A stretch of 32,000 bases of DNA from Candidatus Baldrarchaeum yapensis (lineage in GTDB: Archaea; Asgardarchaeota; Baldrarchaeia; Baldrarchaeales; Baldrarchaeaceae): positions 1 to 32,000 of the forward strand of contig JAEOSH010000012.1 of assembly GCA_016840465.1 (NCBI GenBank). The letters run 5' to 3'. Shown piece after piece: positions 4,219-29,537 of the stretch. The notes beneath the pieces were generated by a model that made no database searches, was not told where the DNA came from, and worked only from the letters and a program-made list of their open reading frames with translations. The number at the start of each line of letters is the position of its first letter. Positions within the stretch are counted from its first letter, which is position 1. The translations under genes and the position numbers were made by a program.

Positions 4219-5022
4219 ATGCCGATGGACATTGTGAGGATAGTGTCGGTGAAGAAGGAAACACAAAACGTCAAGACGATTTACTTCGAATGGGAGTCCG
4301 CAGAGAAAGCGCAACCCGGACAATTCGTGATGGTATGGATTCCAGGAGTCGACGAGATACCTTTAAGCCTCTCAAATGTTGGTTCTAAAATTGCGTCCGT
4401 TACTGTAAAGAAGGTGGGTAATGGAACGGCGGCCCTGCATCAAATGAATGTCGGAGACATGATCGGAATCAGGGGGCCCTACGGAAGATCATTCGCGGTA
4501 ACGGGAGATAAGGTGTTAATAGTTGCGGGAGGAGTCGGTATGGCTCCCATACTTCCTCTGATTAGGGAAGTCTGTTCAAAAGGATGTAATGTGACGGTAG
4601 TTGCGGGGTTTAAGAGTTCAGATGAGATAATATTCAGAGACTACCTAGAAAGTTCCCCCAAAGCTTTAGGAATTAAAGTGTATCTGTGTACGGAAGATGG
4701 CTCGCTCGGGATTAAAGGAACAGCACTCGAGGTTGCTAGGAAAATCCTAAAGAATGAGGTTTTCGATTGCGTGTACGTGTGTGGTAAAGAAACTCTAATA
4801 AGAGGCGTCTTTGATGAATCCATAAGAAAGGGAATTGAAATACAGGCATCTCTAGAACGATATATGAGATGTGGCGTTGGGCTTTGCGGTAGTTGCGTAT
4901 TAGGAGAATATCTGGTGTGTCGAGATGGTCCCGTTTTCGATACCGAAATGCTGAAAAACGTGGTTGATGAACTTGGGAACTTCAAGCGAGATGAATGTGG
5001 TAGGAAAACTAAAGTTTTATAG
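4219..5022 (+). CDS. pyrK: Dihydroorotate dehydrogenase electron transfer subunit
   Basis: PGQFVMVWIPG, IRGPYG, VAGGVG (FAD/NAD binding) and ERYMRCGVGLCGSC...CRDGPVF [2Fe-2S] motif; adjacent to pyrD. Confidence 0.95.
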   Translation: MPMDIVRIVSVKKETQNVKTIYFEWESAEKAQPGQFVMVWIPGVDEIPLSLSNVGSKIASVTVKKVGNGTAALHQMNVGDMIGIRGPYGRSFAVTGDKVLIVAGGVGMAPILPLIREVCSKGCNVTVVAGFKSSDEIIFRDYLESSPKALGIKVYLCTEDGSLGIKGTALEVARKILKNEVFDCVYVCGKETLIRGVFDESIRKGIEIQASLERYMRCGVGLCGSCVLGEYLVCRDGPVFDTEMLKNVVDELGNFKRDECGRKTKVL

Positions 5023-26506: not shown

Positions 26507-27517
26507 TCACACTTCGAATCTCCTATCGATAATTTCTTTACAATCCGGGCCAGTCCCTATGAGCGTAACTGGGAGCTTAAGTTCGCTTTCTATCTTTTCT
26601 ACAAATTCCTTTGCTTGAGTGGGAAGTTTTTCGTACTCCTTTATCCCTCTTGCTTCCGGAAATAGGACATCAAGTTTTGTGAGCGCTATTTGGGTTGCAC
26701 TATTAAGCATAATGGCTCGCTTTGCTAGTTTGAAGTTGAAAGGCGCAGCACGCCTCTCTCTGCCGGTAACCGTCGCCACCTCGTACCATCCCCTCCTCTT
26801 AGCCTCCTCTTTACTTATCTCACCCTCTAAGGGCCCGCCACCCACCCTCGTTACATAGGACTTAAAGACGATGATCACTTCATCGACCTTCTTCGGCCCT
26901 AGTCCAACATCAGCGCAGGCGGACGCTGCACATACGTCTTTTGATGTCACGTAGGGATACGTTCCGTGATATAGTGATAGAAACGTGCCTTGCGTTCCCT
27001 CGACGATCACAACATCCCCTCGATCAACTGCCTCATTAACCTCTAGTGGAACGTCGGTTATATACGGCCGAAGCTCCGGAATTTGTTCAGCAACTTTTAC
27101 AACCCTCAGTGCCCGATCGGCATTTGCCGGACCGCACCCCGATCCGGTGGTCCCTATTTTCCCGGACAGATGCTTTTCCCTTCTATCCCGATCTATGTGC
27201 GACTGTTCTATTATCGCACAGTATTTATCTATTCCCACCCTGCCCTCCGCACCGGTCACTTCTACCTCCTTGAGAAAAACCTCGGGATTTACAAGCACTC
27301 CTGGTCCTATGAGTAGCCGTGCCTTTTCATAGACAAATCCACTCGGTATCTGTCTGAGTTTATACGTTTTACCCCTGTAGTGAACAGTATGCCCGGCGTT
27401 CGGTCCGACCCCAGCTCTCACAACTATGGATGCCTTATCCTTCAACGCTAGGTAAGATACTATTTTTCCCTTCCCCTCATCTCCGAAAAATCCGCCGACC
27501 ACGACCGTACACACCAT
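26507..27517 (-). CDS. purA: Adenylosuccinate synthetase (short archaeal form)
   Basis: GGFFGDEGKGKI, GPNAGHTV, IGTTGSGCGPA, EGTQG, YPYVTS and ATVTGRERR motifs. Confidence 0.97.
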   Translation of the reverse strand: MVCTVVVGGFFGDEGKGKIVSYLALKDKASIVVRAGVGPNAGHTVHYRGKTYKLRQIPSGFVYEKARLLIGPGVLVNPEVFLKEVEVTGAEGRVGIDKYCAIIEQSHIDRDRREKHLSGKIGTTGSGCGPANADRALRVVKVAEQIPELRPYITDVPLEVNEAVDRGDVVIVEGTQGTFLSLYHGTYPYVTSKDVCAASACADVGLGPKKVDEVIIVFKSYVTRVGGGPLEGEISKEEAKRRGWYEVATVTGRERRAAPFNFKLAKRAIMLNSATQIALTKLDVLFPEARGIKEYEKLPTQAKEFVEKIESELKLPVTLIGTGPDCKEIIDRRFEV

Positions 27518-27671: not shown

Positions 27672-27678
27672 TTTAAAG
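27672..27678 (+). promoter_or_regulatory. TATA box for the box C/D sRNA
   Basis: TTTAAAG ends 22 nt before the first base of the 15-bp stem (27701), consistent with archaeal TATA-to-TSS spacing. Confidence 0.6.
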
Positions 27679-27700
27679 TTCAACGAATATAGAACTATAC

Positions 27701-27781
27701 TGATCCGGCAAAGGTAAGGATGAATACTTCCGGCGCCGATTTGGTGACGATAAGGCATTTATCTGAACCTTTGCCGGATCA
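27701..27781 (+). ncRNA. Box C/D methylation guide sRNA
   Basis: C box AGGAUGA 27717-27723; 12-nt guide; D' CCGA 27736-27739; C' GUGACGA 27744-27750; 12-nt guide; D CUGA 27763-27766; flanked by perfect 15-bp inverted repeat TGATCCGGCAAAGGT / ACCTTTGCCGGATCA. Confidence 0.9.
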
Positions 27782-27884
27782 TCTCGGCGTAACGTAATTT
27801 GGGAGGTATTACTTTCATCCGAATCAATTTTATAATGCAAAGCAAGGGATGTTTGAATAGTTTTGATCCAAGGTGCACGTTGAC

Positions 27885-29537
27885 ATGAGAACAAGATACA
27901 TTTTCGTAACCGGAGGAGTGATGTCCGGTATAGGAAAAGGCGTCACTACCGCCTCCATCGGGAAACTTTTCCAGTTTCGCGATTACACCGTTGACGCCAT
28001 TAAGATAGACCCTTATCTCAACGTGGACCCTGGAACTCTCAATCCCATCGAGCATGGGGAGGTGTTCGTAACAGAAGAGGTTTGGGAATTCGAGCCAGTG
28101 AAAGGAATGAAATTCAGAATCTCCGAAATAGATCAGGACTTCGGAACCTATGAGAGATTTCTGGGAAAAAACATTCACCCTAGGAATAATATCACGAGTG
28201 GACAGGTATACCTATCGGTAATTCTCAAGGAGAGGGCGGGGGAATTTCTCGGAAAGACTGTGCAAATAATTCCGCATATAACGGACGAAATAAAAAGGAG
28301 AATACGGCAGGTCGCCGAAGAGGAACAACCCGACATACTCATGGTTGAGGTTGGTGGAACGGTCGGCGATATAGAAGCAATGCCATACCTAGAAGCAATT
28401 AGACAATTTAGACTTGAGGAGCCTAGATGGGCAACCGCATTAGTCCACGTTACCGTCGTTCCTCGACTAAAAACCGTCGGTGAGCATAAGACGAAGCCGA
28501 CCCAGCATAGCGTGAAACTATTACAAGGAATGGGTCTACAGCCCGATGTAATAGTTTGCAGAAGCGATACGTTTCTCTCTGATAATATTAAAAGGAAGAT
28601 AAGCCTATTTTGTAATGTTCCCCCAGAAGCGGTTATTTCAAACCCCGATCTTGAATGTGTCTATGAACTGCCACTAATATTCGAGAGGCAGGGACTTGGA
28701 GACTACCTCTGTAAGTTATTAAACCTAGAGCCTCGCAAACCTTACACCGAGAAATGGAAAAAAGTGGTATCTAGGTTTAAGAATGCGAGAAGAAAAGTAC
28801 GTATAGCACTTCCCGGAAAATACACAGCAATCCATGACAGTTATATATCGATAAACGAGGCATTATCGCACGCGGCGGCATATTTGGACGCAAAAGTAGA
28901 GATATCATGGCTTGATTCCGAAAAATTCGAAAAGGATAAGAAATCTATGGAAACATTGAGCGAATATGATGGAATTCTGCTAACGCCAGGATTTGGAAGT
29001 AGGGGAGTGGAGGGAATGATCCTTTCTGCGATTTATGCGATGAAAAACGACGTGCCATTTTTAGGAATATGTTTTGGCGCTCAACTATTTTTCGTGGCAT
29101 TCTGCAGGGAATATTTGGGACTGGAAGGAGCGAACAGTACAGAAGTTGACCCGAATACAAAGTTCCCGGTCGTGGATTTACTTCCGGAACAGAAGCGCAT
29201 AACTGCCAAGGGCGGAACCATGAGATTGGGAGGGCATGAGGTAATAATCGAGGAGGGTACAAGATTATACGACGCCTACAAGAGAAGAGTGGTGATCGAG
29301 AGATTCCGTCACCGTTACCACATAATAAGAGAGTTCGCAAAGAGGGGAGAGGAGTACGGCCTCGTGATATCCGCATACGACAAAACCGGTCGGATAATAA
29401 ACGCAATAGAACTTGAAGATGCAAAGTGGATGGTTGGCGTTCAGTTCCACCCGGAGTTTAAGAGCCGACCGGATGCACCATCACCCATATATCTAGCATT
29501 TGTTAAAGAATGCTTAGAGTACAGAAGTAAGAGGTAA
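27885..29537 (+). CDS. pyrG: CTP synthase
   Basis: YIFVTGGVMSGIGKG, KIDPYLNVDPGT, EVGGTVGDIE, KTKPTQHSV, GICFG (catalytic Cys) and QFHPEF. Start ATG 27885. Confidence 0.97.
   Translation: MRTRYIFVTGGVMSGIGKGVTTASIGKLFQFRDYTVDAIKIDPYLNVDPGTLNPIEHGEVFVTEEVWEFEPVKGMKFRISEIDQDFGTYERFLGKNIHPRNNITSGQVYLSVILKERAGEFLGKTVQIIPHITDEIKRRIRQVAEEEQPDILMVEVGGTVGDIEAMPYLEAIRQFRLEEPRWATALVHVTVVPRLKTVGEHKTKPTQHSVKLLQGMGLQPDVIVCRSDTFLSDNIKRKISLFCNVPPEAVISNPDLECVYELPLIFERQGLGDYLCKLLNLEPRKPYTEKWKKVVSRFKNARRKVRIALPGKYTAIHDSYISINEALSHAAAYLDAKVEISWLDSEKFEKDKKSMETLSEYDGILLTPGFGSRGVEGMILSAIYAMKNDVPFLGICFGAQLFFVAFCREYLGLEGANSTEVDPNTKFPVVDLLPEQKRITAKGGTMRLGGHEVIIEEGTRLYDAYKRRVVIERFRHRYHIIREFAKRGEEYGLVISAYDKTGRIINAIELEDAKWMVGVQFHPEFKSRPDAPSPIYLAFVKECLEYRSKR

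Follow-up and report, generated by a model that had tools for sequence, protein, structure and literature searches.

The spacer between the genes purA and pyrG of Candidatus Baldrarchaeum yapensis raises the question whether it encodes a guide RNA, and which rRNA nucleotides such an RNA would select. We analysed a window of 32,000 nucleotides (contig JAEOSH010000012.1 of assembly GCA_016840465.1, from position 1), in which the spacer holds a complete box C/D sRNA on the forward strand at positions 27701-27781. Very probably, this stretch encodes a genuine small guide RNA that an Asgard archaeon uses to aim at two 23S rRNA sites. Its divergent neighbour is purA, coding for adenylosuccinate synthetase (26507-27517, reverse strand), which adjoins the sRNA in relatives too. 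The downstream neighbour is pyrG, coding for CTP synthase (27885-29537, forward strand). The reverse-strand open reading frames 27673-27894 and 27759-28178 were taken as mechanical.

The sRNA shows the arrangement of archaeal C/D RNAs, four boxes in order within about 50-70 nt: boxes C, D', C' and D follow each other over 50 nt (27717-27766) and delimit two guides of 12 nt. Box D (CUGA, 27763-27766) is exact, and box C (AGGAUGA, 27717-27723), box D' (CCGA, 27736-27739) and box C' (UGACGA, 27745-27750), the last two placed by sequence and alignment, each depart from the consensus by one base. Folding places a perfect terminal stem of 15 bp around the boxes, with its 5' arm at 27701-27715 and its 3' arm at 27767-27781 (duplex -26.8 kcal/mol, fold z = -7.6). 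The free RNA is predicted to be able to fold its two guides onto one another. In an anchored K-turn analysis the sequence agreed with kink-turn geometry: the stem is followed by a 3-nt bulge, AAG (27716-27718, so that bulge and box C together cover 27716-27723), then by G-A, A-G and U-U pairs and a closing G-C pair. The bulged position of box C is G27718 in place of the usual U, which is found in all homologues parsed and is named in a review as required for L7Ae binding (PMC7994747). A TATA-like box, TTTAAAG (27672-27678, forward strand), lies 29 nt before the stem start and is a candidate for the sRNA's own promoter. Its position suits archaeal promoters. The sRNA sequence is identical in a second assembly. 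A scan of the window with Rfam gave no match up to E 1, therefore no curated Rfam family covers this sRNA.

Elsewhere in the host genome (G000), at least seven further candidates for box C/D sRNAs are unannotated, and most of them have guides that form 9.5-12 pairs with 23S rRNA. Candidates are located at C69:2137-2185(-), C51:14529-14586(+), C1:53244-53292(-), C1:57375-57430(-), C74:17453-17499(-), C65:21537-21588(+) and C68:39116-39171(-). On the rRNA locus of the host (L001), the 5S gene is followed by a GC-rich structured stretch (4330-4560), which, judging by its conserved motifs, may be RNase P RNA.

The first-pass annotation had assigned the D guide to a single adenosine of 23S rRNA, using a target sequence of crenarchaeal type, and this assignment was borne out on the host's own 23S rRNA (G000:C59:1031-4195, L001), which reads GGUAGCCAAAUGCCUUG as expected. 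The guide UAAGGCAUUUAU is found at 27751-27762, with CUGA directly behind it. Nine Watson-Crick pairs, from U27760:A1936 to A27752:U1944, and a terminal G-U pair (U27751:G1945) are formed as claimed, and the final two bases of the guide are unpaired with the target. The fifth base upstream of box D, U27758, stands opposite the third A, which corresponds to E. coli A1938 (L001 position 3196). Both guides of the RNA reach at least 9 bp with a Watson-Crick pair at N+5, namely 9 Watson-Crick pairs plus one G-U with U:A1938 for the D guide, and 10 plus one G-U with C:G1906 for the D' guide.

A1938 is the best 23S site of the D guide by a wide margin (score 9.5, against 6.0 for the next). The target search covered the 23S rRNA, the 16S rRNA without its unassembled 5' half and 32 tRNAs, and no comparable site of the D guide was detected in any of them, tRNA scores being at most 5.0. 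The unassembled 5' half of the 16S rRNA may hold a second target. The 9-mer alone is weak, since the genome contains 31 occurrences of AAATGCCTT, and pairing of equal quality somewhere on rRNA is reached by 6.7% of random 12-mers from the genome. The joint chance that both guides match within 100 nt is about 3e-5, and their actual separation is 32 nt. The match of the D guide is above chance because it comes with the C-D'-C'-D layout, the 15-bp stem, a second guide with its target 32 nt away, and conservation in other genomes. The target shows almost no variation, with AAAUGCCUU present in 21 of 25 Asgard 23S stretches, and it was also found in two complete Heimdallarchaeia-like genomes. No paper with experimental evidence of Am1938 in an archaeon was found.

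The D' guide AUACUUCCGGCG (27724-27735), left unassigned in the first-pass annotation, forms 11 bp including one G-U pair with the 5' strand of helix 69. It pairs with 23S positions 1902-1912, its best site on the host 23S rRNA, and its +5 base C27731 selects G1906 (L001 position 3164). It is highly likely that positions 27701-27781 encode a stand-alone double-guide C/D sRNA of the archaeal type, directing 2'-O-methylation at A1938 and G1906.

Proteins of the C/D sRNP are encoded by the host. Fibrillarin, its catalytic methyltransferase (PF01269, E 6e-105, Pfam match range 1307-1987), and Nop5 (PF01798, E 3e-77, Pfam match range 2098-2775) are encoded on the reverse strand inside the window, and L7Ae elsewhere in the genome. 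The nop5-fibrillarin gene pair (1307-2775) and the sRNA share a contig, with the gene pair about 25 kb upstream. Transcription of the sRNA, RNP assembly and both methylations are predicted here from the established mechanism. L7Ae would bind the C/D kink-turn and the C'/D' kink-loop and then recruit Nop5 and fibrillarin. The D guide, placed on 23S positions 1936-1945, would direct 2'-O-methylation of A1938, and the D' guide, on 1902-1912, methylation of G1906. Since the two targets lie 32 nt apart on either side of helix 69, at the subunit interface, one RNP could hold them together, presumably during folding of the helix-69 region. In thermophilic archaea, helix 69 has been described as a hotspot of methylation at this interface (PMC4644070).

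For the survey of Asgard archaea, a profile built from homologues was run on 150 relatives, and pattern matches were added. Clear copies of the sRNA were found in at least 19 other Asgard genomes belonging to eight families, with weaker candidates from a further three. The same D' guide, with specificity for G1906, is present throughout the four genomes of the host's order, and a G1906 guide is also kept in one further family. Jordarchaeales and Odinarchaeia possess the A1938 guide next to purA/pyrG, with a partner guide that is different or degenerate. The pair formed between box C and box D covaries: the host has G-C, nine relatives have U-A, and Odinarchaeum has A-U. The guides have exchanged positions in Njordarchaeales and in one other family. 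Position -3 of the G1906 guide in the swapped families is C, against G1904 in congeneric 23S rRNA, whereas the host has G opposite C1904; this covariation holds at genus level only, as the swapped genomes themselves are without assembled 23S rRNA. The A1938 guide was not found in Heimdallarchaeia-like genomes with the queries used. The bare pattern AGGCATTTNNCTGA, searched over 400 Asgard genomes, was rejected, its matches being mostly chance occurrences in coding DNA. A pattern of box and guide with a CWGA box D gave only a handful of real cases, because box D of the relatives reads AUGA or UUGA, and this shortfall was corrected by the profile search.

Several other features were observed in these genomes. 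One locus (L152, about 1490-1640, genome G149) carries on its minus strand two nearly identical C/D cassettes in tandem. In both, the D' position is occupied by a guide of the A1938 type and the D position by a guide to the helix-69 loop. Genome G150 (L331) has one such cassette, with predicted targets A1913 and A1938, both of which are methylated in eukaryotes. The 23S rRNA genes of Odinarchaeum (G005, L419:1580-1740) and of genome G015 (L420:1570-1760) carry inserts of about 30 and about 50 nt, respectively, at E. coli position 1927/1928. These fall between the A1938 and G1906 targets and are probably rRNA introns. A related-locus search with PyrG as query returned only distant loci, nearly all bacterial. 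In four of four genomes of the host's order (G001-G004; L017:1465-1497 in G001 and the same place in L018 in G004), an insert of about 31 nt interrupts pyrG behind codon 44, and the host's own pyrG is without it. The insert contains a stop and a strong hairpin (z = -3.7) and resembles a bulge-helix-bulge intron. In another Asgard family, pyrG has its GGVMSGIGKG motif split by a different insert of about 30 nt (L022, L010 and L020, about 1470-1500; genomes G044, G052 and G060).

Guides to A1938 were also present in Thermoproteota, where box, guide and box were found in 52 of 301 genomes, and a reversed control gave 1. Among the 50 loci inspected, 13 were of the G1906 type and 28 had a partner guide to A1912/A1913. 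The archaeal partners of the A1938 guide vary, and include guides to G1906, A1912/A1913 and C1920.

It is unlikely that only the D guide is productive, or that the D' guide acts elsewhere, on G1948 in helix 71, reached through a 2-nt bulge. In that register, the U of the D' guide that stands opposite G1908 in six of six copies of the host's group would form a Watson-Crick pair with A1950, Odinarchaeia and Jordarchaeales have a degenerate or different partner guide, and guides of S. islandicus are reported, in work cited in PMC11077068, to obey extra recognition rules. Nevertheless, the helix-69 duplex is contiguous and stronger (-19.9 kcal/mol, against -14.1 for the G1948 pairing), and the crenarchaeal and Njordarchaeales homologues fit helix 69 and covary with it. 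Our own first reading placed the D' guide on helix 71 (G1948) and was dropped as weaker and bulged in favour of helix 69. A role of the stem beyond the kink-turn was likewise considered, with the 5' arm as an extra antisense element that opens helix 71 beside the A1938 target. The arm can form 12 bp with 23S positions 1940-1951 (one bulge, -19.0 kcal/mol, 9 nt exact), for which a post hoc test gave a chance of 0.001-0.004 in an 82-nt window, and plant U15 employs extra pairing near the same site (PMC8053127). However, the arm is held by a more stable stem within the sRNA (-26.8 kcal/mol), which the K-turn needs, the pairing overlaps the D-guide duplex, and the match was present in none of 11 Asgard homologues of the same layout, whose longest match is 5-6 nt. 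As it is missing from the homologues and weaker than the stem itself, the match is probably due to chance, and we consider the antisense role improbable. Window positions 27698-27715, the 5' arm with the bases just before it, can pair with 23S positions 1940-1956, interrupted by one mismatch and one bulge (-22.3 kcal/mol), and the homologues do not share this longer match.

Another alternative is that the copy has decayed or lost its function, or that short motifs have come together by chance. It would be in line with the one-base departures from consensus in each of boxes C, D' and C', and with the many chance matches of the bare guide and CUGA pattern in coding regions. Nonetheless, box D' and box C' depart in a matched way (U-U to C-C), the two guides are undamaged, and the sRNA is kept in position and sequence across families, which makes this explanation very improbable. 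We therefore retain the double-guide sRNA directed to A1938 and G1906.

The site selected by the D guide is methylated in eukaryotes. The first-pass annotation had equated it with yeast A2281, and the yeast modifications Am2256, m5C2278, Am2280, Am2281 and Gm2288 (PMC5199042) indeed match host bases at a constant offset of 343. Yeast Am2281, guided by snR13, corresponds to human Am3764, guided by U15, and to the target of AtU15 in Arabidopsis (PMC8817022), also in line with that annotation. Its further suggestion, a guide-target relationship common to this archaeon and eukaryotes, stands for the site. It is less secure for the RNA gene, since the partner target is G1906 here and the equivalent of G1945 in plant U15. 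A site equivalent to G1906 is missing from the lists for yeast (PMC5199042) and Arabidopsis (PMC8053127).

The wide spread of the A1938 guide over Asgard families and Thermoproteota fits inheritance and an archaeal origin of the Am2281/Am3764 modification. Nevertheless, shared single guides are often convergent (Dennis et al. 2015, PMC4644070), and a guide of 9 nt to a conserved site can arise repeatedly. It is conceivable, although somewhat doubtful, that true orthology links the A1938 guide to the D guide of eukaryotic U15/snR13, with the guide kept from a Thermoproteota-Asgard ancestor into eukaryotes and its partner exchanged several times. Orthology is unproven, as the host and eukaryotic RNAs have different partner guides and the search of Heimdallarchaeia-like genomes yielded no guide. 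If true, it would place this guide among the very few snoRNA specificities that can be followed from archaea into eukaryotes. At a more modest level, an uncultured Asgard lineage gains an unannotated guide RNA and two predicted methylations of its rRNA; no published catalogue of C/D sRNAs was found for this lineage. It also indicates that a guide for a subunit-interface methylation conserved in eukaryotes (Am2281/Am3764) is spread over many Asgard families and Thermoproteota.

Similar to the host sRNA, plant U15 and human SNORD15 (U15A/B) have a D guide that selects the equivalent adenosine (Arabidopsis A2282, human Am3764; PMC8053127, PMC8817022). However, the second guide of plant U15 selects the equivalent of G1945 (G2289) and not that of G1906 (PMC8053127), and the Rfam models of the SNORD15, U15 and snR13 group gave no match in the window up to E 1. 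Yeast snR13 also guides Am2281 (PMC5199042), but it serves the neighbouring Am2280 too, to which nothing in the host sRNA points. It is a longer eukaryotic snoRNA with no detectable similarity to the host sRNA outside the guide.

The published counterparts of the host sRNA are archaeal. A comparison with known archaeal guides, as the first-pass annotation had proposed, led to Sac-sR125 of Sulfolobus acidocaldarius and sR109 of Ignicoccus hospitalis (Iho sR109), which were already predicted to act on A1938 (PMC4644070). Both RNAs were detected by RNA-seq, and their predicted targets are given as A2204 and G2172 in the alignment numbering of that study (Dennis et al. 2015, PMC4644070, Additional file 1). 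Since A2178 in the same numbering is E. coli A1912, these targets correspond to E. coli A1938 and G1906. The target pair, the RNA class and the mechanism are already published, and the relationship is not new for archaea. Like the host sRNA, Sac-sR125 and Iho sR109 are double-guide C/D sRNAs with the D core AAGGCAUUU directed to A1938 and the D' guide to G1906, and guide order and spacing are the same. Their targets are predictions too, although the RNAs were seen by RNA-seq. On the question of descent or convergence, the two guides, their order and their spacing are the same and the type has a wide distribution in Thermoproteota, but the RNAs are too short for a tree and the gene context differs. 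The A1938 guides of Thermoproteota with an A1912/A1913 partner have the same D guide and box layout as the host, whereas their partner reads the helix-69 loop. Unlike Sac-sR125 and Iho sR109, the host sRNA belongs to an Asgard archaeon, has a 15-bp terminal stem, lies between purA and pyrG, reads AGGAUGA, CCGA and UGACGA in its boxes C, D' and C', and has one G-U pair in its D' duplex.
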